Positions 14,441 through 43,863 of a DNA stretch of 64,000 nt are shown here, piece by piece. Positions within the stretch are counted from its first letter, which is position 1. Each line of letters begins with the position of its first letter. The notes under the pieces were generated by a model. It was given only the letters and a program-made list of their open reading frames with translations, searched no databases and had not been told where the DNA came from. This stretch comes from an uncultured Mycoplasmatota bacterium (GTDB lineage: Bacteria > Bacillota_I > Bacilli_A > RF39 > UBA660): contig CANTCQ010000003.1 in assembly GCA_947652325.1 (NCBI GenBank), forward strand, positions 64,890-128,889. The letters run 5' to 3'. The position numbers were made by a program, and so were the translations under genes.

Positions 14441-16633
14441 ATGAACTATATAAAAGGCAAGATAAGGGCGACTATATTTAAAAATGAAAATGGCTTTTTT
14501 GTAGGGACATTCCGCGTAAAAGAAACAAATGATAATTATATGAAAGAATTTTTAAATAAAACAATTACAATCACAGGAACAGTTTTAGACCCCAATGAAG
14601 AGGAAACTTATATTTTAAATGGAGAATATATAAAACATGAACGATTTGGTTTTCAATATAAAATTATAAGTTATGAAAAAGAAAAACCAACAGGCTCCGA
14701 TGCCGTTATTGAATTTTTAGCAAGTCCTTTAATTAAGGGATGTGGTGAAAAAACAGCACGTAAAATAGTAGAAACGTTAGGGGAACAAGCGATTTCTTTA
14801 ATTAAAGAAAACAAAAATAACTTGTTTTTAGTTCCAGATATGACAGAAAACCGTGCCAACAACATTTATGCCTCTTTGCTAGCACATTCTTCGAGTGATG
14901 ACTTAATTATCGAACTTAAAAAATTTGGTTTTTCGGTTGGAGAAGCTACAAAAATTTTAAAAAAATACAAAGAAAAAACAGGTGAATTTTTACATACAAA
15001 TCTTTATTATTTCAAAAAAATAATAGATTTTAATAAATTAGATGCTATATACATGGCCCATTTTGATAAAGAAGATGAGATTCGTAAAAAAGAATGTATT
15101 CTAGAATCTATGAAAAGAATCAGTGATACAGCAGGAGATATTTATTATGAAAAAGAAGAAATATATACAGCTTTAAAAACTTATTTTAAAATTATAATAG
15201 AAGAGGCAGAATTTGTAGAATTATTAAAAAAACTCACAAGCCTCAACTTAATAAAGTGTGTAGATAAAAAGTATTATTTAATCGAAAATTACCTTCGTGA
15301 GCATGATATTGCAAAAAATTTAGAAAAAATTGGCAATCTTCCCAAAAAAGAAATGATAGAATTTGAAAGTAGCATAAAATCATTAGAAGACAACTTAAAA
15401 GTATCTTATAATATAGACCAGAAAAAAGCGATAAAAAACGCTTTAGAAAACCGAATTTCTATTATTTCAGGAGGACCTGGAACAGGAAAAACAACCATAA
15501 TTAATGCAATTACCAAACTCTATATTGAAATGCATAAACTTTCTCCTATTGACTGTATAACCAATATTGCTCTTTTAGCTCCAACGGGTAGAGCGAGTAA
15601 AAAGCTTGCTGAATCAACACATTTGCCAGCCATGACGATTCATAGATATTTAAAATGGAACAAAGATACCAATGATTTTGCTATTAACGAGTATAATAAA
15701 AACCACCATAAACTAATTATAGTAGATGAGGTAAGTATGATAGATACTTTTTTATTTGATTCTCTTTTAAAAGGATTAGATACGGGTATTCAACTTGTTT
15801 TAGTGGGAGATACTTTTCAACTTCCAAGTGTTGGAGCAGGTCTTATTTTGAACGATTTAGTGGAATCGCATTTGTTTTCTTTTAATCCCCTAGAACATAT
15901 TTATCGTCAAAGTGAAAACTCTTATATTGCCTATTTAGCAAAAGAAATCAAAGACCATAATTTAAGTGAAACTTTTACTGAAAAAAAAGATGATTATAAC
16001 TTTTTTATGACCGATAGCAAAGAAATAACAAAAGTGGTAAAAGAAATATGTAAAAGAAGTATAAAAAAGGGATTAAAAGTAGATGACTTGCAAATCCTTG
16101 CTCCTATGTACAAAGGAGAAAATGGTATTGACAATTTGAACTTAGCTTTACAAGAATTATTTAATCCAAAAAAGGACAATTTGAAAGAAGTAAATTTTGG
16201 AGATATTATATTTCGAGAAAAAGACAAAGTATTACAACTCGTAAATAATCCAGATTGTAACGTATACAATGGAGATATAGGGTATATTGAAAAAATAGAA
16301 ACTAGATACAACCCTAGAAAAAAAGAAATTGTTATTATTGATTTTGACGGCAATTATGTAGAATACCAAAAAGAAGATTTGTATATGATTAAACATGCAT
16401 ACGCTATAACGATTCATAAAAGCCAAGGAAGCGAATTTCCTCATGTAATCATGCCCATTAGTAAAAACTATTATAAGATGCTTTACAATAAACTAATATA
16501 TACGGGTGTATCAAGAGCAAAAAAAAGTTTAGTAATTGTAGGAGAAAAGAATTCTTTTTTAATGGCCATGAATAATGATTATAGTAGTAACCGCAAAACA
16601 ACATTAAAAGAAGTTTTATTGCATAATTTATAA
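14441..16633 (+). CDS. recD2: RecD2-type ATP-dependent DNA helicase (YrrC family)
   Basis: 730 aa with Walker A GGPGTGKTT, Walker B IIVDEVSM, LVLVGDTFQLPSVG and a C-terminal TIHKSQGSEF motif. Confidence 0.9.
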   Translation: MNYIKGKIRATIFKNENGFFVGTFRVKETNDNYMKEFLNKTITITGTVLDPNEEETYILNGEYIKHERFGFQYKIISYEKEKPTGSDAVIEFLASPLIKGCGEKTARKIVETLGEQAISLIKENKNNLFLVPDMTENRANNIYASLLAHSSSDDLIIELKKFGFSVGEATKILKKYKEKTGEFLHTNLYYFKKIIDFNKLDAIYMAHFDKEDEIRKKECILESMKRISDTAGDIYYEKEEIYTALKTYFKIIIEEAEFVELLKKLTSLNLIKCVDKKYYLIENYLREHDIAKNLEKIGNLPKKEMIEFESSIKSLEDNLKVSYNIDQKKAIKNALENRISIISGGPGTGKTTIINAITKLYIEMHKLSPIDCITNIALLAPTGRASKKLAESTHLPAMTIHRYLKWNKDTNDFAINEYNKNHHKLIIVDEVSMIDTFLFDSLLKGLDTGIQLVLVGDTFQLPSVGAGLILNDLVESHLFSFNPLEHIYRQSENSYIAYLAKEIKDHNLSETFTEKKDDYNFFMTDSKEITKVVKEICKRSIKKGLKVDDLQILAPMYKGENGIDNLNLALQELFNPKKDNLKEVNFGDIIFREKDKVLQLVNNPDCNVYNGDIGYIEKIETRYNPRKKEIVIIDFDGNYVEYQKEDLYMIKHAYAITIHKSQGSEFPHVIMPISKNYYKMLYNKLIYTGVSRAKKSLVIVGEKNSFLMAMNNDYSSNRKTTLKEVLLHNL

Positions 16634-16649
16634 AGTTTATTCCATACTA
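16621..16649 (+). promoter_or_regulatory. forespore-type (sigmaG/F-like) promoter candidate
   Basis: GCATA-N17-CATACTA. The -10 box ends 20 nt before the ATG at 16670, and the -35 box lies in the last codons of recD2. Confidence 0.5.
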
Positions 16650-16669
16650 GGAATAAGGAAGTGATTTTT

Positions 16670-16825
16670 ATGAAAAAAATGATGGTCGCAACAACAGTAG
16701 GAATGGCTTGTGGAGCAGGTCTTGCTGCTTACGTATTAACAAACAAAAACACAAAGAAAAATGCAGATAAACTATTAAATACAATGATGGATGAAGCGAA
16801 TCACATGATTAAAGCAAAAAATTAG
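16670..16825 (+). CDS. small YtxH-like membrane protein (51 aa)
   Basis: Not in the ORF track because it is under 60 aa. My translation is MKKMMVATTVGMACGAGLAAYVLTNKNTKKNADKLLNTMMDEANHMIKAKN. It has an SD (aaggaag) and a terminator follows. Confidence 0.55.
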   Translation: MKKMMVATTVGMACGAGLAAYVLTNKNTKKNADKLLNTMMDEANHMIKAKN

Positions 16826-16848
16826 AAGAGTAATATCTTCTTTTTTTT
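16824..16848 (+). terminator. rho-independent terminator
   Basis: agaaga-gtaata-tcttct stem-loop followed by T7. Confidence 0.7.
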
Positions 16849-16876
16849 ATATGAGTAATAAGATAGTAAAAAAGTC

Positions 16877-16905
16877 TTGACAAATGCTCGGGGGGGGGGT
16901 ATATT
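16877..16905 (+). promoter_or_regulatory. sigmaA-type promoter whose 17-nt spacer contains a G10 tract
   Basis: TTGACA at 16877-16882, spacer aatgctcGGGGGGGGGG, TATATT at 16900-16905. Confidence 0.7.
16890..16899 (+). repeat. G10 homopolymer (candidate slipped-strand phase-variation tract)
   Basis: Ten consecutive G between the -35 and -10 hexamers. Confidence 0.95.
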
Positions 16906-16936
16906 AATAGGAAAATTCATAGAAAAGGGGATGAAC

Positions 16937-17869
16937 ATGTTAAATTCTAAAGAAGAAAGGGAAATAAATAAAATATTGGAAAGTTCAGAATTAACAAGAA
17001 ATTTATCTTTTGCTGTACAAAAAGAAGAAATAGTAAACAAGTTTCCAAAATCGTTTTTTTCAGAAGAAAATCAGTCCTTATTTGAGTATGTATTTGATTT
17101 GTTACATAGATTGCCATTTGGGATTATAAAATCGAGATATGTTGAAGAATGTTTAATGTATTTATATGAGCAAGAAAATCCCTATTTAGTAAGCCCAACA
17201 AAAGAATTGTATCCTATAGTTGCCAAAAAACACGCAAAAAAGCAAGAACATATTGAAAGAGGTTTGAGATATCACATAACAAAAAATTTTCTAAATATCA
17301 ATCAAGATATTAGAGAAGAATATTTTACAACACCTGAAGGTAAAATTCCAACCAATTTCTTATTTCTTTCTAATTTAGTAGAATATATAAGGGTGCATTA
17401 CTACAGTTATTCCACACCTACCTTTACAAAAGAGCAAATAGAATATTTTATTGCAAATATGAAAAAAGAAGACAATGCAATGTATATTATAGAACAAGCC
17501 CATCGAAAAAAAGAACTCGAAAAGTTTTTGCAGGAGTACCTAGGACTTTTTCAATATCAAGCAGCAGATTCTCACTTTTTACTTACTGAGTTAATTTTGC
17601 ATTATATAGATAATCCTGTACCTTTATTATTAGACTTTTATAGAGACGAATTTATTTGTAACAGGTGGAAAATTTATACTAAACAAGATTTTCTTCAAAA
17701 AATGGCTTGTATAACTCTTTCTATTGGAAAGGCTTATCCACATATAAACCCAGAAATATACAAAGTAATTTTTGGAGATTGTGAACTTCATAGAGGAACT
17801 GCTGAGTTTATAAGAACAGTTAGTAAATACTTAAAAGAGCAAGAGTTTGTAAGAAGTTTAAAAAGATAG
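16937..17869 (+). CDS. orphan Spo0A C-terminal (DNA-binding) domain protein, two tandem Spo0A_C-like domains, no receiver domain
   Basis: LYPIVAKKHAKKQEHIERGLRYHITKNF ... IPTNFLFLSNLVEYI parallels Spo0A LYPDIAKK..ttasrVERAIRHAIevaW...PTNSEFIamvadkL. A second, weaker copy ends ...GTAEFIRTVSKYL. The start is set at the Met after the SD aaaagggg. The track start at 16877 runs through the promoter. Confidence 0.65.
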   Translation: MLNSKEEREINKILESSELTRNLSFAVQKEEIVNKFPKSFFSEENQSLFEYVFDLLHRLPFGIIKSRYVEECLMYLYEQENPYLVSPTKELYPIVAKKHAKKQEHIERGLRYHITKNFLNINQDIREEYFTTPEGKIPTNFLFLSNLVEYIRVHYYSYSTPTFTKEQIEYFIANMKKEDNAMYIIEQAHRKKELEKFLQEYLGLFQYQAADSHFLLTELILHYIDNPVPLLLDFYRDEFICNRWKIYTKQDFLQKMACITLSIGKAYPHINPEIYKVIFGDCELHRGTAEFIRTVSKYLKEQEFVRSLKR

Positions 17870-17880
17870 GAAAAATTTTT

Positions 17881-17907
17881 GAAGCAACCTGCTTCTTTTT
17901 CTTTTTT
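17881..17907 (+). terminator. rho-independent terminator
   Basis: gaagca-acc-tgcttc stem-loop followed by tttttctttttt. Confidence 0.8.
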
Positions 17908-17940
17908 AAAAATGATATAATACCAAAAGGTGGGTAGTAA

Positions 17941-20484
17941 ATGAAACGCTTAGAAGTAGACAAAGAAAAATTAAGTCCAGGGATGCGACAATATTATGAT
18001 ATAAAAGAAGAATACCAAGAAGAACTTTTATTTTTTCGATTAGGAGATTTTTACGAACTATTTTTCGAAGATGGTGAAACTGCTGCAAGAGAGCTTGAAC
18101 TTACTTTAACAAGCAAAAATGCAGGGCTAGAGGAAAGAATTCCTATGTGCGGAGTTCCTTTTCATTCGGTAAAGCCTTATATAGAGAAACTAGTAAACAA
18201 AGGTTATAAAGTAGCTTTATGCGAACAATTAGAAGACCCAAAAAACACCAAAGGAATGGTAAAAAGAGGAGTCGTCCAAGTTGTATCGAAAGGTACTATT
18301 ATTGATACTGAACTTTTAAATGAACATGACAACAACTATATTGCAAGTATTCTAGACTTTTCTTTTACCTATGTGTTATGTTATGCTGATATTTCTACTG
18401 GAAGCTTAAATATAATGAAGATAGAACACAAAAAAGAAAAATTATTAAATGAACTTTTAAATTTAAAAATAAAAGAAGTTTTATTAAAAGATGGTACAGA
18501 TACCGAACTTATTGGTATTTTAAAAGGAAATTATGGAATTGAAATATCCATATCTAATTATTTTTTAGAAAATGGTTGTGAAGCATTAATAAATGGTGTA
18601 GAAGATATACGATTTAAAGAAGGAGTTAAGCATTTACTTTACTATTTAATAGTTCGTGAACTAAAAGATGTTTCCCATATAAAAGAAGTAAATATCATAA
18701 ACAAAGAAGATTATTTAGAAATGGACACACATACTATCCGTAATTTGGAATTAGTAGAAACATTACGCTTAAAAGAAAGAACGTATTCTTTAATTTGGCT
18801 TTTAGATAAAACCAAAACCAGCATGGGAAGTAGAAAGTTAAAAGACTACTTATTACATCCTTTAAAAAACTTAGAAAAAATAGAAGAACGTTATGATAAA
18901 ATTATTGCTTTGAATAATCATTTTATAACCAAAGATGAAATCCGCGAGTATTTACATGAAATTTATGATATAGAACGATTATGTGGGAAGATTGCTTGTA
19001 ATTCAGTAAATGCTAGAGACCTTTTGCAATTAAAAAATAGCCTAAAAGTTTTACCAAATATTAAAAAAAATGTAGAAGAATTAGATTTTAAATATAAAAT
19101 AAATACGCATCAAGGCATTTATGATTTACTTGAAAATGCGATTTATGAAAATCCACCTGTTACTTTAAAAGAAGGATTTTTAATAAAAGAAGGATTTAAT
19201 CAAGAATTAGATGAATTAAAAGAAATTAGAAGTGGCGGCAAAACGTTTATCGCCGATTTTGAAACAAAATTAAAGGAAAATACAGGAATAAAAACACTAA
19301 AAGTAGGTTATAACCGTGTTTTTGGTTATTACATTGAAGTAAGCAAAGGAGCCGTAAAAGATATACCATTTAATCTAAATTGGGAACGTAGGCAAACCCT
19401 TACAAATTGTGAACGTTTTATTTCACCAGAATTAAAAGAAAAAGAAGCACTTATTTTAAATGCAGAAGAAAAAATAATCAATTTAGAATACAATTTGTTT
19501 ATAGAAATAAAAGAGCAAATAAAAAAAGAATTAATTTCCTTAAAAGATACGGCTGAAATAATTAGTGAATTAGATGCTTTAGCGAGTCTAGCTGTTTGTG
19601 CTGAAGAATACAATTTAGTAAGACCAGTATTAAATAAAGAACATACGATTGAAATAAAAGAAGGATTTCATCCTGTAATAAAAAAAGTAAGCAATAATGC
19701 CTATGTACCTAATGATTGCATAATGAAAAAAGATACAACAACCCTTTTAATAACCGGTCCTAATATGAGCGGCAAGTCAACTTATATGCGACAACTAGCT
19801 ATTACAAGCATTATGGCTCAAATGGGTTCATTTGTACCAGCCTCTAGTGCAACTCTTCCAATCTTAGATAAAATATTTACTCGTATTGGAGCAAGTGATG
19901 ATTTAGTAAGCGGAGAATCAACATTTATGGTGGAAATGAACGAAGCAAGAAACGCTATTCTAAACGCGACAGAAAATTCTTTAATTCTTTTTGATGAATT
20001 AGGAAGAGGGACAGCCACTTATGATGGCATGAGTCTTGCCCAAGCGATTTTAGAATACGTAAATAAAAATATTAAATGCAAAACGTTATTTTCCACTCAT
20101 TACCATGAGCTTACATCCTTAGAAAAAGAAATACCTTGCATTAAAAACATTCATGTTGCAGCACATGAAGAAAATGGAAACATTACTTTTTTACATAAAA
20201 TAAAGGCAGGAGCAGTGGACAAATCTTATGGTATTCATGTAGCAAAACTTGCAGGAATGCCACAAGAACTAATCAAACGAGCAAGTGAAATCTTATCGTT
20301 TTACGAGAGTCATGAAAAGAAAAAGAACAAAGAAGAAAATGTGCAATTAGAAATGGTCTTTGAAGAAAAAAAAGACAAAGATTCTGTAAAAGAATTTTTA
20401 GAAAACATTGACCCAGTCTATATGACACCTATAGAGGCTATCAACAAATTATATGAACTAAAAGAATTAATAAAAAAGAAATAA
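17941..20484 (+). CDS. mutS: DNA mismatch repair protein MutS
   Basis: 847 aa with N-terminal mismatch-binding sequence (TPGMRQYYDIKEEY..FFRLGDFYELF), Walker A GPNMSGKST and FDELGRGT. Confidence 0.97.
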   Translation: MKRLEVDKEKLSPGMRQYYDIKEEYQEELLFFRLGDFYELFFEDGETAARELELTLTSKNAGLEERIPMCGVPFHSVKPYIEKLVNKGYKVALCEQLEDPKNTKGMVKRGVVQVVSKGTIIDTELLNEHDNNYIASILDFSFTYVLCYADISTGSLNIMKIEHKKEKLLNELLNLKIKEVLLKDGTDTELIGILKGNYGIEISISNYFLENGCEALINGVEDIRFKEGVKHLLYYLIVRELKDVSHIKEVNIINKEDYLEMDTHTIRNLELVETLRLKERTYSLIWLLDKTKTSMGSRKLKDYLLHPLKNLEKIEERYDKIIALNNHFITKDEIREYLHEIYDIERLCGKIACNSVNARDLLQLKNSLKVLPNIKKNVEELDFKYKINTHQGIYDLLENAIYENPPVTLKEGFLIKEGFNQELDELKEIRSGGKTFIADFETKLKENTGIKTLKVGYNRVFGYYIEVSKGAVKDIPFNLNWERRQTLTNCERFISPELKEKEALILNAEEKIINLEYNLFIEIKEQIKKELISLKDTAEIISELDALASLAVCAEEYNLVRPVLNKEHTIEIKEGFHPVIKKVSNNAYVPNDCIMKKDTTTLLITGPNMSGKSTYMRQLAITSIMAQMGSFVPASSATLPILDKIFTRIGASDDLVSGESTFMVEMNEARNAILNATENSLILFDELGRGTATYDGMSLAQAILEYVNKNIKCKTLFSTHYHELTSLEKEIPCIKNIHVAAHEENGNITFLHKIKAGAVDKSYGIHVAKLAGMPQELIKRASEILSFYESHEKKKNKEENVQLEMVFEEKKDKDSVKEFLENIDPVYMTPIEAINKLYELKELIKKK

Positions 20485-20499
20485 AGAAAGGAAAATTAA

Positions 20500-21189
20500 A
20501 TGAAACTAGCAGAAGCAATGACAAAAATTTTTACGCCTCAAATTGCAGAGGAAAATAAAAAAATAGAATTTCAGCAAATAAAAATAATTCTTGGATACTT
20601 TTTAGAAAAAAATATAAACAGTATTTTTAAAAGAGTAGAATTTTCACCCTTAGAAATGGAACTGAAACGTGTAGACGAAAATGGAAAAGAGAACGTATAC
20701 ATGCGATTTGGAAATGTAGAATACTATTTATTTTTAGATAACCAAAACCATTTAATTATGAAAAATAACTCTAAAGGAGGTATTTTATTTCGAATTGATT
20801 TTAGTAATAAAATGGCAGAAAATTATTTAGTATCCAAACAAGATGCAGTTATGATAAAAGAATACCAAGAAATAAGTTTAGAAATACCAGTTTTTAGGTA
20901 TCACAAGACAACAGAAGGAATTATGATAGATATATATTCCAAAACGGTAAAAGCAAAACCAAAAACAAACAGGTCTTCAAATAAAACAGAACAATTAGAA
21001 ATTCATTTCATAGAGGAGACAAAGACCAATGTTTTTGAAAATTGGTGGAACAAAATTTTTAGAAAAGATACCATTACTATTCAAAAAGAAAATTCAGAAG
21101 AAAGTTTGTTTTATCACTTACCTGAAATATATGAAGCATTAGAAGAAAAAACTGAAACTTTAACACCGGTAAGAAGAAAATGTAAGTAA
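20500..21189 (+). CDS. hypothetical protein (229 aa) in the position where mutL usually follows mutS
   Basis: ORF with SD (aaggaaaa). No GHKL or MutL motif seen. Confidence 0.5.
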   Translation: MKLAEAMTKIFTPQIAEENKKIEFQQIKIILGYFLEKNINSIFKRVEFSPLEMELKRVDENGKENVYMRFGNVEYYLFLDNQNHLIMKNNSKGGILFRIDFSNKMAENYLVSKQDAVMIKEYQEISLEIPVFRYHKTTEGIMIDIYSKTVKAKPKTNRSSNKTEQLEIHFIEETKTNVFENWWNKIFRKDTITIQKENSEESLFYHLPEIYEALEEKTETLTPVRRKCK

Positions 21190-24881: not shown

Positions 24882-25856
24882 ATGAAAAAAATAAAAATAT
24901 GGATGATAACAATTTTAATGTTTATCCCCAATATAGTCCTTGCTTATTCGAGCCAAGTTATAGTAGGAGGGCAAAACATTGGAATTAATATTCAAAGTGA
25001 TGGCGTACTTGTGGTTGGATTTTATAAAGTAAATGGAAAAGAAGTAAAAAGTAATCCACCTATACAAGTAGGAGATTATATTATGAAAGTGGGAAACACA
25101 GAAGTAACAACAATTAATGAACTTACAAATGCCATTGAAACCAATATGAAGGAAAATGAAGTTGTTTTAACTTATAATAGAGAAGGGAAAGAAGAAAAAT
25201 CAACACTTTCTTTAATAGAACAAGATAAAGTATTTAAAACGGGTCTTTACGTAAAAGACAGCATTACAGGAATTGGAACACTTACTTATATTGACCCTGA
25301 AACAAAAATTTTTGGTTCACTTGGTCATGAGATAATTGAAGCAAACTCTAATAAAAGAATCGAAGTGAAAACAGGAACTATTTTTAATAGTGTTATAACA
25401 GGAATTAATAAAAGTACCGATGGAACTCCAGGAGAAAAAAAAGCCAATTTTAAAACAACCGATGTTTATGGGACTATTTCAAAAAATACAAAATACGGTT
25501 TATTTGGAACTTATACTACAAAATTACCGGATAATCGAATACTAGAAGTAGCAAATCCCAATGAAATAAAGGTCGGAAAAGCAACAATCGAAACTGTTTT
25601 AGATGGTAATGAAATAAAAGAATACGAAATAAATATTACAAAAATCAATGAATACAATAAAATTAAAAATATATCATTTGAAATTACGGATAATGAACTT
25701 TTAGATAAAACTGGAGGAGTTGTCCAAGGGATGAGTGGAAGCCCAATTATCCAAAACGGAAAAATTGTGGGGGCTGTAACCCATGTTATAGTAGATAATG
25801 TCAAAACAGGATATGGAATATTTATTACCACAATGTTAGAAGAAGGCGAAAACTAA
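24882..25856 (+). CDS. spoIVB: SpoIVB signalling serine peptidase (S55) with PDZ domain
   Basis: Signal anchor, PDZ domain (GDYIMKVGNTEV) and S55 catalytic region (GSLGHEI ... GMSGSPIIQNGKIVGAVTHV). Confidence 0.9.
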   Translation: MKKIKIWMITILMFIPNIVLAYSSQVIVGGQNIGINIQSDGVLVVGFYKVNGKEVKSNPPIQVGDYIMKVGNTEVTTINELTNAIETNMKENEVVLTYNREGKEEKSTLSLIEQDKVFKTGLYVKDSITGIGTLTYIDPETKIFGSLGHEIIEANSNKRIEVKTGTIFNSVITGINKSTDGTPGEKKANFKTTDVYGTISKNTKYGLFGTYTTKLPDNRILEVANPNEIKVGKATIETVLDGNEIKEYEINITKINEYNKIKNISFEITDNELLDKTGGVVQGMSGSPIIQNGKIVGAVTHVIVDNVKTGYGIFITTMLEEGEN

Positions 25857-25946
25857 GCCTTTTTTCTTTATAAAAATTTGATTTTCACAAATATTCGACA
25901 TTTTTATCGCTTTTTATTTGTTATAAAACCAATAGGTGATTTAAAT

Positions 25947-39840: not shown

Positions 39841-42123
39841 ATGTATAAAAAAATTTATGTTGATAAAATAAACGATTTACCAGAGCCATACGATGCAAAA
39901 CTAAATAAGGAAGCATTTGAAAAAATGGCGAATGGCGATACTTCGATTAAAAAGGATATTATTGACCATAATTTAAGATTTGTTTTAAATCAAATTTATA
40001 ACTATTTTTCCAAAACTTCTTATGAAACAAATGAATTATTTAGTATAGGAACAATAGGATTAATAAAAGCTATAGATTCATTTGATATTAAAAAAGGAAA
40101 TGCATTTGCCACGTATGCCACGAGATGTATTCATAATGAAATTTTAATGTTTATGCGTCACGAGAAAAAATTTTCAAAAGAAGAAAGTATGAATAAATCT
40201 TTATATCATGATAAAGATGGAAAGGAAATAATTTTAGAAGAAATTATTGCTGATAATAATATAAATATTCTAGATGATTATATCGTAACCGAAGAAATTG
40301 AAAATAACGAAAAATTAATAGAAAAAATGAAAGAAATTTTAAATTTTTTAAAAGAACGTGATAAACAAATAATTTTATATTTATACGGATTGACAGATGG
40401 AAAAAAACATTCTCAATCTGAAGCAGCAAATAAATTTAATTTGTCGCAAAGCATAATTTCTCGAATCGAAAGAAAGTGTTTGAAACTTTTAAAAGAAATA
40501 TTATATAATGAAATGAACACCACAATAGAATATAGCGATTTTGATACGACTGAAATAGATCCATTATTAAATTCAAAATTATTTATAGAATTTATAAATT
40601 TATTTCCAGAAGAAATGCACAAATCGTATTGTATTGAAAAAGGGATAAGAATAAAAAATAAAAAAGTATCGAAAATTATTAATTCTAAACTAACTAATAA
40701 TAGTAAACAAGAGATAAAAACTATGGAATCTCATTTAAAATTTATGATAGATGAATATTTTAATGGAATAAAACAAAACAAAAATAAAAAAGAAATTTTG
40801 GAAAGTTTAATATCTAAAATGAAAAATAGAAGTTTATTATTTCGTTTTTCTGAATATTCAAATATGGAAATAATATATGCTTTAAGATATTTAACAGAGG
40901 AAGAGCAGCAAATTATTATAAAAAGACATGGACAGAATTTAAACAATTTTTTCTCATTTTCAAAAAAGAAATATCAAAAACAATTTAGAAAATATACACT
41001 TGCAGTACAAAACTTAGAAATAATTCTTTTCTTAATAAAAAATAAAGAACGTTTTAAAAAAGATTTAGAAATATCCGAAGATAAAAGTCTTATCGATAAT
41101 CTAAAATATTTAACAATAAAAGAAAAAAACATTTTGTGTTCGGGGGGGGGGTATACTAAGGAAACAAAAACATATTATGACATACTTGCAATCATAAAAA
41201 GAAAAAAAGAAGGAAAAATATGTAAAGTATCTCCTTTATTTCAAAAATATGCAAAAGAAGAAATAAGAATGGCATTACCTATACTAAGTAAAGAAGAGCT
41301 AATACTATTTCTAAGTCGTCATGGAGAGAATTTAGAACAAAAAAATCCTTGGCCAACAGATCAAAAATCTAGTTATTATTATAGGCGTTATGCAAAAATT
41401 GTAAAAAAAATAATAAAGCATATTGAAAGTAAAAAAGAAGTATTAGTTACTGAATTTTGTCTAAAATATGGATTTAATTCAGTGAGCGAAGCAAAGGAAA
41501 CCATAGCCTTATTAGCAAAATCGGAACAAGATATTATTTACCTAAAATGGGGTGAAGACTTAAATTTTGTAAAATCATTTCCAAGAAATAATATAAAAAA
41601 ATCATTTGCTGAGTATTCATGGGAGTATGAAGAAGCCATTTATCATTTAAAACAAATACAAAAAAAACAAAATGCAAATAGAAAAGAAGAGCAAATAGTC
41701 ATTATTGACCAACCATCAAAAAAAATAAAAAATGATTTACTAGAAGAAAAACTATCTTTAAAAAAAGCTGAAATCTTTAATAATTTATTTGAAGTATATC
41801 AAACACTTATTGATAAAAAAATCATAATAGAACTAATTAATAAAACAGTAGTAAATTTACGCATTTCAAATAATGAATATTTTCATATCATCGAAAATGA
41901 AATATTTATGAATTTAGCAAATCAATACAAAGAAAATATAGATAATGAAAAAGGACACATGCTAATAAACCACATAAAAGAAATGTTTTTGATAAAGATT
42001 AAAGCAAAAAATCCCCTATATACAAAAGAAAAAATTGCATATGCGATAGAAGAAGTTTTTAAAAATTATACGGGAACGAGTAATTTTGAATTCGAAATAA
42101 CTCTTTATTTAAAAAATAGGTAA
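39841..42123 (+). CDS. sigmaE/sigmaK-like sporulation-type sigma-70 factor fused to a ~530-aa C-terminal extension of degenerate region-4-like repeats
   Basis: Residues 1-225 align by eye with B. subtilis SigE/SigK: LPEPYD, MANGD, HNLRFV, SIGTIGLIKAIDSF, ATYATRCIHNEILMFMR, and region 4 LKERDKQIILYLYGL...SQSIISRIERKCL. Four further modules follow (ALRYLTEEEQQIIIKRHGQNL, NLKYLTIKEKNILCSGGGY, ALPILSKEELILFLSRHGENL, ALLAKSEQDIIYLKWGEDL). Confidence 0.8.
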   Translation: MYKKIYVDKINDLPEPYDAKLNKEAFEKMANGDTSIKKDIIDHNLRFVLNQIYNYFSKTSYETNELFSIGTIGLIKAIDSFDIKKGNAFATYATRCIHNEILMFMRHEKKFSKEESMNKSLYHDKDGKEIILEEIIADNNINILDDYIVTEEIENNEKLIEKMKEILNFLKERDKQIILYLYGLTDGKKHSQSEAANKFNLSQSIISRIERKCLKLLKEILYNEMNTTIEYSDFDTTEIDPLLNSKLFIEFINLFPEEMHKSYCIEKGIRIKNKKVSKIINSKLTNNSKQEIKTMESHLKFMIDEYFNGIKQNKNKKEILESLISKMKNRSLLFRFSEYSNMEIIYALRYLTEEEQQIIIKRHGQNLNNFFSFSKKKYQKQFRKYTLAVQNLEIILFLIKNKERFKKDLEISEDKSLIDNLKYLTIKEKNILCSGGGYTKETKTYYDILAIIKRKKEGKICKVSPLFQKYAKEEIRMALPILSKEELILFLSRHGENLEQKNPWPTDQKSSYYYRRYAKIVKKIIKHIESKKEVLVTEFCLKYGFNSVSEAKETIALLAKSEQDIIYLKWGEDLNFVKSFPRNNIKKSFAEYSWEYEEAIYHLKQIQKKQNANRKEEQIVIIDQPSKKIKNDLLEEKLSLKKAEIFNNLFEVYQTLIDKKIIIELINKTVVNLRISNNEYFHIIENEIFMNLANQYKENIDNEKGHMLINHIKEMFLIKIKAKNPLYTKEKIAYAIEEVFKNYTGTSNFEFEITLYLKNR
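41142..41151 (+). repeat. G10 homopolymer inside the sigma gene (codons S-G-G-G)
   Basis: tcGGGGGGGGGGtat. With G9 or G11 the frame reaches a stop within 16 or 3 codons respectively (my translation). Confidence 0.95.
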
Positions 42124-42219: not shown

Positions 42220-43863
42220 ATGGATTTAGAAGAAATATTAGCATTTTTAAATAATATTGATAAAAAAAAAGAAGGAGACTTTGAAAAAAAATGGCATTCA
42301 TTTGAAAATATTTATTTAAGTGAAGAACAAATAAATATTTTAATAAAAGATCCAATATGCCAAAGAGTATCAAAGTATATATTTGAATCTATAGAAGAAA
42401 TTTCAGAAAATTCCTATGAAAAATATATAAAAAATAATAATTTATTAAGAATTTTAAACAATATCTACATAGAAGAAAATAGTAAAAAAATGCAAAAATC
42501 ACTTTCTCAAGAGGAAGAGTTAGAATTATTAAAACAAATGGCAAATGGTGATAAACAAGCAAGAGCGAAGTTAATTGAAAAGAATTTGGGTTTAGTCAAA
42601 TTTTGTATCAATAATCTTGCAAAGTATTATAATTTGTCAAATATTTCTCTTGCTAATTTATATGATGATTTATTTCAAGAAGGAGTAGAAGCTCTTATAA
42701 AAAGTTTAGATAAATTTGATTATACAAAAGGATACAGAATAGCAACTTATACAATTTGGAGTATTAAAGCGGCCATTAATCAATATTTAGAAAAACAAAG
42801 ATTTCAATTAAAAGTTAGTAGAAATAAAATGGTTGAAATTAAAAAAATGCATAAAATCATCGGAGAATTATCTTTAGAGGGATATAATAATTTTTCATCC
42901 CAAACACTAACTGAAAAATTAGAAGTTGCAAAGGAACAACTAGCTGAAAATATACAATTATGTCAAAGAACAATATATTTAGATTCTTTTTTAGAAGAAA
43001 CAAATTTACATGAAGTGTTAAAAAATGATGGAATAGAAATTGAAAAAGATTATGAAAAAAAAGAATTTTATCAAACATTCAGAGAGATAATTAAAAATTG
43101 TGTTACAAATAAAATTATAAAAGAGCAAGAATTCCTAGTAATTTCTTTGCGTTATGGGCTAGAAGATGGAGAGCCAAAAAAATACAAGGAAATTGGAAAA
43201 ATAATAGGTAAAACTTGGCAAAGAGCACAACAAATTCATGATGAAGGTATAAAAAAATTGAAAAAATATAATAAAATAAAAGAATTTGGTCAAGAAAATA
43301 ATTTATATATGAATAGAAAAAGAAAACCAAAGATTATACATTCAATTGCAGAGTTAAAAGAGAAATATCCACCTGTAACCGATGAACAAATACAAGAAGG
43401 ATTGTCCTATTTAACAAAAAAACAACAAGAAGTAATATATAATTGTTTAAAAGAACAACAAGAAATTAAATCCTCATCAAAGGAATACCAAAGTTTAATA
43501 AATGGAATAAGAAAACTAGAGGAGTACATAGTAAATAAATTAAAAATAACTCCCCAATTAGAAACGGAAATATTGGGGAATCTAAAACTTTTAACAATAA
43601 CAACTTGGCAAGAAGAATTAAAAGAACAACAAAAAAGTCTAATTCATAGAAAATACCAAACTGTATATGGAGATATAATTCAATCACAAGAATTAGAAAA
43701 CAGTATAAATCAAGCTTTTGAAAATCAAAAGTTAGAAAGTTCATTTAGAAGTAAAAAATTACAAATAGAAGAAGCATTTTTTATTATATTAATAGAAAGA
43801 TTAAAAAAAACAACAGAGGAATTTGAATATAAAAATTTACTTCTTATATTTTTAGAATATTAG
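42220..43863 (+). CDS. RpoD-like sigma-70 family protein with ~110-aa N-terminal and ~180-aa C-terminal extensions
   Basis: Region 2 (LIEKNLGLVKFC...DLFQEGVEALIKSLDKFD...YRIATYTIWSIKAAINQYL), a region 3-like segment and region 4 (EQEFLVISLRYGLEDGEPKKYKEIGKIIGKTWQRAQQIHDEGIKKL). Confidence 0.8.
   Translation: MDLEEILAFLNNIDKKKEGDFEKKWHSFENIYLSEEQINILIKDPICQRVSKYIFESIEEISENSYEKYIKNNNLLRILNNIYIEENSKKMQKSLSQEEELELLKQMANGDKQARAKLIEKNLGLVKFCINNLAKYYNLSNISLANLYDDLFQEGVEALIKSLDKFDYTKGYRIATYTIWSIKAAINQYLEKQRFQLKVSRNKMVEIKKMHKIIGELSLEGYNNFSSQTLTEKLEVAKEQLAENIQLCQRTIYLDSFLEETNLHEVLKNDGIEIEKDYEKKEFYQTFREIIKNCVTNKIIKEQEFLVISLRYGLEDGEPKKYKEIGKIIGKTWQRAQQIHDEGIKKLKKYNKIKEFGQENNLYMNRKRKPKIIHSIAELKEKYPPVTDEQIQEGLSYLTKKQQEVIYNCLKEQQEIKSSSKEYQSLINGIRKLEEYIVNKLKITPQLETEILGNLKLLTITTWQEELKEQQKSLIHRKYQTVYGDIIQSQELENSINQAFENQKLESSFRSKKLQIEEAFFIILIERLKKTTEEFEYKNLLLIFLEY

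Follow-up and report, generated by a model that had tools for sequence, protein, structure and literature searches.

A length-variable poly-G tract in the promoter spacer of a receiver-less Spo0A-like gene from an uncultured gut Bacilli lineage: a candidate contingency locus

A run of ten guanines lies between the -35 and -10 hexamers of a gene for a Spo0A-like DNA-binding protein in an uncultured bacterium, and the locus raises the question of whether the length of this tract could set the level of the regulator. The DNA analyzed here is a stretch of 64,000 nucleotides, hereafter called the window. Its GC content is 27.4%, and two runs of at least ten G were observed in it, versus 4.7e-4 expected by chance. 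The gene content of the window, including hrcA-grpE-dnaK-dnaJ, spoIVB, radC, mreC, and SigK/SigE-like sigma factors, indicates a low-GC member of the Bacillota. A type II/IV secretion-like ATPase and two platform proteins are also encoded. The closest species representative is the mouse-gut MAG 'uncultured Bacilli bacterium MGBC128534', with a ProRS that is 92% identical, and the next representatives, at 69-77%, are mostly labeled as uncultured Bacilli, Tenericutes, or Mollicutes, together with Clostridium sp. CAG:609. The window gave no matches in Rfam and tRNA scans, and a tandem-repeat scan of it returned A-rich low-complexity sequence only.

The promoter is located on the + strand. Its -35 hexamer TTGACA (16877-16882) matches the consensus at 6/6 positions, and its -10 hexamer TATATT (16900-16905) at 5/6. 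The spacer between them (16883-16899) is composed of a fixed part, AATGCTC (16883-16889), and the G10 tract (16890-16899), giving 17 nt, of which 10 are G. The preliminary description had placed both hexamers, the tract, and the 17-nt spacing at these positions, and every coordinate was exact. With 11/12 consensus matches, this promoter was the top site within 16000-18500 in a consensus scan, and no other good promoter was found by that scan in 16826-16936. In the whole window, the sites with at least 11/12 matches numbered 12 on the + strand versus 4.0 +/- 1.9 in shuffles, a three-fold enrichment, with 1 on the - strand; other genes on the + strand are preceded by promoters built in this way. 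Most of these sites were 25-60 nt 5' of an RBS and ATG, which indicates that the organism uses canonical sigma-A-type promoters. Transcription of the Spo0A-like gene would start at approximately 16912, about 7 nt after TATATT, a prediction that accords with the terminator-like hairpin upstream and with the lack of a second good promoter in 16826-16936. A sigma-E/K-type promoter, with TATATT as the -35 element and CATAGAAA as the -10 element, was rejected, because the CATA spacing, judged by eye, is unconserved in the homologous loci L102 and L004. Elsewhere in the window, a perfect 12/12 promoter (908-972; TTGACA, 18 nt, TATAAT) has a G5 run adjoining its -10 hexamer, and the 401-aa gene of unknown function 3' of it has a G7 run (952-958) as its RBS.

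The ribosome-binding site AAAAGGGG (16923-16930, + strand) belongs to a GGGG(G) block that aligns in all homologues. Two candidate start codons follow it, ATG 16931, which abuts it directly, and ATG 16937, which is 6 nt away and 31 nt 3' of the promoter. This distance favors 16937 as the start. The N-termini of the closest homologues, ML(S/N), also align to 16937, and the gene is thus taken as 16937-17869 on the + strand, encoding 310 aa.

The gene order in the window is recD2, a 51-aa ORF, the Spo0A_C gene, and mutS. After the 51-aa ORF there is an intrinsic-terminator-like hairpin with an A-run, stems, and a U-run (16817-16849, + strand), in which the stem AGAAGA (16824-29), a loop, and the stem UCUUCU (16836-41) are followed by U8. 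Its folding energy is -9 kcal/mol (z = -2.9; 1 of 200 shuffles was as good), it falls below the 3-GC-pair rule of the terminator scan, and a hairpin with a T-run occurs at the equivalent place in the homologous loci L103 and L104. The terminator that the preliminary description had placed upstream of the promoter is thus real but modest. In the gap between the gene and mutS, a second terminator-like hairpin, GAAGCA/UGCUUC with a T-run, was found (17881-17905, + strand; -6.2 kcal/mol, z = -2.5). Terminator-like hairpins on both sides indicate a single-gene unit. In Bacillota, mutL is the usual partner gene of mutS. In the window, the gene after mutS (17941-21189) is not mutL but encodes a 229-aa protein without a family match; the state of mismatch repair bears on the slippage rates of homopolymers.

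The encoded protein contains a Spo0A_C-type helix-turn-helix region (residues ~48-152) and a C-terminal half that is conserved but has no assigned function. The Pfam model Spo0A_C (PF08769) matched residues 67-151 with E = 5.8e-12 and 46 bits, versus a cut-off of 25, and a receiver domain (Response_reg) had no Pfam match in the 310-aa protein. The family profile matched the Spo0A effector-domain structures PDB 1LQ1/1FC3 with E ~ 1e-6, and the motif T-K-x-L-Y-P-x-I-A-K-K and the recognition-helix motif E-R-x-x-R were conserved in this comparison. The Spo0A equivalog TIGR02875 gave 26 bits versus a cut-off of 200 and was matched at model positions 143-257 only. By these matches, we regard the product as a Spo0A_C-domain protein and not as Spo0A. 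The gene had previously been called an orphan Spo0A-C-domain gene; the presence of the domain and the absence of the receiver agree with this name, but the protein is not a bare domain, since ~65 residues precede the domain and ~155 follow it. The C-terminal half (~157-310) is conserved within the family and has a weak collinear match to the Spo0A_C half of the same protein (hhalign probability 40%, E = 3e-4, 100 columns), so it may be a degenerate second copy of the DNA-binding domain. An AlphaFold model built from a 3-sequence alignment had a mean pLDDT of 54.6, too poor for use. The full-length family is tiny, with ~7 clusters (50% identity) in a set of 1.84 billion representatives, and a search with the family alignment found no homologues in the GTDB species representatives or in a first scan of JGI metagenomes. 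Spo0A_C also occurs commonly as a stand-alone protein of 110-190 aa.

Like Spo0A, the protein has a homologous helix-turn-helix effector domain that keeps E-R-x-x-R. Unlike Spo0A, it carries the additional C-terminal half of ~155 residues, and its lack of a receiver domain means that there is no phosphorelay input. The location of the gene is also different. In endospore formers, spo0A is usually immediately downstream of spoIVB. In the window, spoIVB (Peptidase_S55; 24882-25856) is followed by a gene for a 164-aa protein that had no Spo0A_C or receiver match and a weak SPOR match (E = 0.004), while the gene studied here lies between recD2 and mutS. The sequence TTCGACA, the complement of a 0A-box, occurs at 25894-25900, and the counts of the 0A-box (TGTCGAA) in the window were too few for interpretation.

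[quoted passage not shown] G9 was found in at least five assemblies (SRR25706285, -372, -393, -400, and SRR26138759) and G10 in at least five, including the window (the others being SRR25706258, SRR25706262, SRR26138733, and ERZ14425201); these were the two lengths seen at the promoter tract. With AATGCTC unchanged in every same-strain assembly, G9 gives a spacer of 16 nt. Four G9 loci of 6.7-8 kb were aligned with the window, and the alignments contained 0 mismatches and a single gap, which was the missing G. The preliminary description had expected single guanines to be gained or lost, and this expectation is supported by G9 and G10 in otherwise identical stretches of 6.7-8 kb; an invariant tract, which it had named as evidence against the switch, was not observed among these assemblies. 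Both lengths were present within each of two run-accession series: in the first, the low run numbers (258, 262) had G10 and the higher ones (285, 372, 393, 400) had G9, and in the second, SRR26138733 had G10 and SRR26138759 had G9. The absence of other mutations in 8 kb indicates that the mutation rate at the tract is far above that elsewhere. The locus therefore shows two features that define a contingency locus of this type, a homopolymer of at least ~7 nt between the -35 and -10 hexamers (here G10) and a tract length that differs within an otherwise clonal population, as compared by consensus assemblies.

The tract length also left a trace in the public annotation. On 5 contigs, a 330-aa ORF was called that begins with the TTG of the -35 box; only the G10 frame keeps it open. 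A 312-aa protein was called on 3 contigs, all with G9, and the 310-aa protein on 6 contigs. The annotated length (330/312/310 aa) thus partly tracks the tract length, an artefact of annotation. When the tract is G10, callers read the ORF through the promoter and report 330 aa instead of 310.

We believe it likely that the G tract is a contingency locus that switches the spacer between 17 and 16 bp and hence the level of the Spo0A-like regulator. In this model, the tract would be a hypermutable homopolymer occupying the -10-proximal end of the spacer in a strong sigma-A-type promoter. No other promoter is evident for the gene, which forms a unit by itself with a terminator-like hairpin on either side. 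At replication, one G would be gained or lost through slipped-strand mispairing. The G10 form, with 17 bp, would be optimal and give high expression, and the G9 form, with 16 bp, would be sub-optimal and give lower expression, because RNA polymerase would meet the hexamers in a different alignment and initiate at a different rate. The population would then contain sub-lineages that differ heritably, and probably interconvertibly, in the amount of the regulator and presumably in the expression of its target genes. The anatomy of the promoter and the polymorphism in one background are observed; the direction and size of the change in expression, its reversibility, and the regulon are what the model predicts from them, with the effect on promoter strength derived from the spacing rule of 17 +/- 1 bp. 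A several-fold change between 16 and 17 bp is more likely than an on/off change. Because the -35 box is perfect, the 16-bp form is probably weaker and not silent, and the switch would work as a volume control.

A more far-reaching reading is that in this lineage a Spo0A-like effector, constitutively active once made because it has lost its receiver domain, is governed by a conserved mutational switch and not by phosphorylation, as a form of genetic bet-hedging. The tract would then set, stochastically and heritably, which cells express the effector, so that a developmental programme, such as sporulation or a similar differentiation process, would be hedged genetically and not controlled by a phosphorelay. 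That spoIVB does not precede a spo0A gene in the window, that the tract is kept down to 47% protein identity, and that SigK/SigE-like genes and spoIVB are present are all compatible with this reading, which we nevertheless consider improbable.

The upstream regions of seven homologous genes were fetched and aligned with that of the window, giving eight regions, in which TA.A.T of the -10 hexamer was invariant; the identical -35 hexamer aligned in L102, L003, L103, and L104. In L102 (47% protein identity; contig with 24.8% GC), TTGACA and TATATT are separated by 18 nt composed of AAACCATC and G10, and the chance expectation of a run of at least ten G in this locus is 8e-6. A 17-nt spacer without a G tract follows TTGACA in L003 (51%; TATAGT), in L103 (37%; TATAAT), where the order recD2, 51-aa ORF, gene, and mutS is the same as in the window, and in L104-107 (35%; TAAAGT). 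In all of these, at 35-51% identity, the hexamers, the GGGG RBS, and the ATG are collinear with the window. The preservation of the hexamers and of a spacing of 17-18 nt across distant homologues indicates that the promoter assignment is sound. The comparison across related genomes that had been proposed as a check of the locus thus agreed with the assignment, with TTGACA, a spacer of 17-18 nt, TAnAnT, the RBS, and the ATG in register and G10 recurring in the L102 spacer. In L102, G9 would give 17 nt, so there too the optimum is one slippage step away. L101 (39%) reads CTC-G7-A-TTATAAT. L004 (72%) reads GCGGGGCGG-TATATTAA and then continues as A/C-only junk, and its contig breaks down exactly at the G-rich stretch abutting TATATTAA; this resembles a read failing at a long homopolymer and is suggestive only. 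The tract is absent in four homologues (L003, L103, L104-107, and L108), which shows that it is not essential to the gene family. On the protein tree, tract-bearing and tract-less genes are interspersed, which indicates repeated gain or repeated loss. A G10 tract would not persist or recur neutrally at one spot in AT-rich genomes, and mutability itself appears to be favored at this site.

The strongest competing explanation is that G9 and G10 are a stable neutral polymorphism of two very close sub-clones, in which the length has no selected regulatory consequence. Just two alleles were observed, the division of the first run series into low run numbers with G10 and higher ones with G9 could mirror host or cage groups, spacers of 16 and 17 bp can both be active, and four homologues manage without the tract, all of which would fit such sub-clones. 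However, a neutral G10 should decay at 25-27% GC, yet the same spacer holds G10 in the 47%-identical homologue, and G-rich tracts recur in two further homologues (L101 and L004). Moreover, both alleles recur in the second run series, and the lack of any other mutation in 8 kb implies a far higher rate at the tract. We therefore consider this explanation unlikely, and the contingency locus is the preferred reading.

It is also conceivable that the tract acts in another way, as an operator for a G-tract regulator, as the leader of a transcript started upstream, or as part of a translated N-terminal extension. The 330-aa ORF (TTG 16877, G10 frame), called on 5 contigs, would fit the extension, and the flanks shared with the second G10 tract of the window (described below) hint at a common sequence context. 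Against this, no RBS precedes TTG 16877, while AAAAGGGG precedes ATG 16937, and the closest homologues all start with ML(S/N) in alignment with 16937. The hairpin at 16824-49 leaves ~27 nt for any upstream promoter, the likeness of the two flanks is limited to ~9 nt, and the second tract lacks a -35 box at 16-18 nt. We consider such actions very unlikely. Translational phase variation through the 330-aa ORF in particular was rejected, on the ground of the TTG without an RBS and of the homologue N-termini aligned at ATG 16937.

The second G10 tract of the window (41142-41151) served as a control. It lies in a coding sequence, inside an ORF of 760 aa (39841-42123), where it encodes GGG. In the 4/4 other contigs that span it (L008, L011, L013, and L014) the tract is G10, and the exact in-frame 760-aa protein is encoded by 13 contigs. 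Among 22 contigs around the upstream neighbour, the sole split gene shown is that of L009, which has 4x coverage, reads GGGGTGGGG, and is split into 451 + 328 aa. The other homopolymers in the compared 8 kb, including all A/T runs of 8-9, were invariant. The reproducible calling of the coding G10 tract indicates that the difference at the promoter tract is biological and not an artefact of sequencing or assembly. Its near invariance also indicates that the intrinsic rate of slippage is too low to make consensus sequences vary everywhere; to account for the stability of this tract, one has to assume in addition that the reading frame is under purifying selection. Least likely of all is therefore the explanation that the true length is single and that sequencing or assembly erred at a long G homopolymer. 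Illumina two-colour chemistry is prone to errors in long G runs, and two low-coverage ENA contigs, L009 (GGGGTGGGG) and L004, have obvious G-tract errors, but the coding G10 tract was read as G10 from the same kinds of data, the promoter tract splits approximately evenly into two clean lengths on contigs of up to 100 kb, and the split appears in independent gene calls as well (330 aa on 5 contigs, 312 aa on 3).

The coding tract has features of its own. Both G10 tracts share the immediate flanks TG.TC-G10-TATA.TAA, and the likeness ends beyond ~9 nt. The tract at 41142 was also considered as an internal promoter, and this was rejected because a -35 box is missing at 16-18 nt and the ATG that follows lies in another frame. 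The coding tract may be a frameshift contingency site that is held in frame. It uses the rarest glycine codon, with GGG accounting for 26 of the 292 Gly codons sampled. The 760-aa protein has a SigK/SigE-like N-terminus and a long C-terminal extension with repeated modules of the form 'L(T/S)xxEx(x)I...(H/W)G(E/Q)(D/N)L', and the tract lies inside one of these modules.

The type of mechanism proposed here, a homopolymer switch in a promoter spacer, is already known; the new elements are the host lineage and the receiver-less Spo0A-like target. For example, a poly-G tract in the promoter spacer of Neisseria meningitidis porA was reportedly described by van der Ende in 1995 as stepping the expression level through slippage. 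In meningococcal opc, a poly-C tract between the hexamers sets transcription in steps through single-nucleotide slippage (PMC3447861, citing Sarkari 1994), which agrees with the parallel with Neisseria opc that the preliminary description had drawn. The present locus is like porA and opc in that a homopolymer of similar length (9-13) lies between the -35 and -10 hexamers and one-nucleotide changes alter the spacing. It is unlike them in that they concern outer-membrane proteins of Gram-negative pathogens, whereas here a cytoplasmic DNA-binding protein of low-GC gut Bacilli is concerned, and the case is made from sequence. In Treponema pallidum, the promoters of tprE/G/J, tp0126, and tprL contain poly-G tracts of 7-12 that vary within and between isolates and set promoter activity (PMC7864442 and its references 15 and 16). 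For the tpr genes, tracts of 8 G or fewer are permissive and longer ones are off. These systems likewise have a poly-G tract of variable length in the promoter, but its position relative to the hexamers differs between the genes, and the targets are putative outer-membrane proteins.

In the Mollicutes, a poly-A tract (vlp of Mycoplasma hyorhinis) or TA repeats (Vmm of M. mycoides and Vmc of M. capricolum) are located in sigma-70-type spacers, and 17 bp is the ON state. Here too, a simple repeat builds the promoter spacer. In contrast to the present locus, these repeats consist of A or TA, which costs little in an AT-rich genome, and they serve surface lipoproteins, whereas the tract studied here is made of G in a genome of 27% GC and serves a regulator. 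The taxonomic labels of the GTDB relatives suggest that the Mollicutes are the nearest hosts among the systems compared. Hypermutable repeats that control a regulatory protein, as here, are known from the poly-C tract of Bordetella bvgS, from the homopolymers of Campylobacter flgR/flgS, from Klebsiella rmpA, and from phasevarions, and where a repeat controls a regulator, a single slip could change the state of many genes together. In bvgS, flgR/flgS, and rmpA, however, the repeats are in coding sequence and act on/off by frameshift, whereas here the repeat is in the promoter and the proposed output is graded. Klebsiella rmpA, with its poly-G tract, has been described as a phase-variable regulator (bioRxiv 10.1101/2025.09.12.675794).

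Most documented cases of repeat-mediated phase variation come from pathogens and concern surface molecules. Here, a repeat of this kind would act on a transcription factor of uncultured commensal gut Bacilli, and the G tract has been retained in deeply diverged homologues despite a strong AT bias. If the expression of the G9 and G10 forms truly differs, one slip could reprogramme a whole set of target genes, and consensus sequences from metagenomes would hide such heterogeneity.

Two further observations concern other genes. In L003 (3778-6379), the gene is tandemly duplicated; the two 311-aa paralogues are 64% identical and are followed by a 229-aa sigma-70 family gene. This locus sits after rpmF and not between recD2 and mutS, and its promoter is the one without a G tract described above. 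The 229-aa protein encoded after mutS in the window had no similarity to the sigma factor encoded after the L003 paralogues. At 43842 (ORF 42220-43863), the window has one C fewer than L013 and L014 (CTT-CTT vs CTTCCTT). The deletion shortens a second sigma-like gene, with an RpoD/SigA-like core and a C-terminal extension, from 591 to 547 aa, and reflects either a genuine frameshift allele or a mistake in the record of the window.

JGI metagenome contigs were scanned for the pattern TTGACA-N6-10-G9-TATA. The scan returned at least 120 loci (L109-L228) with promoters of the form TTGACA-N-G(9-12)-TATAAT, whereas a uniform composition would give an expectation on the order of tens. Many of the loci listed have an RBS and an ATG within 30-70 nt downstream, and the spacers were mostly of 18-19 nt (87 of 123 among the matches listed). 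There was no Spo0A_C homologue 3' of such a promoter among the matches listed. Several families of near-identical loci differ only in tract length, one of 9 members with G9/10/11 and others of 5, 4, and 3 members with G9/G10. This suggests that the variable G-tract promoter architecture is widespread in gut bacteria, which makes the mechanism more credible and the present instance less unique. On contigs of 25-31% GC, the downstream genes include one that is type-IV-pilin-like (MKKKGFTLIELL...), one for a glycine-rich peptide, and others whose products appear to be membrane or secreted proteins.
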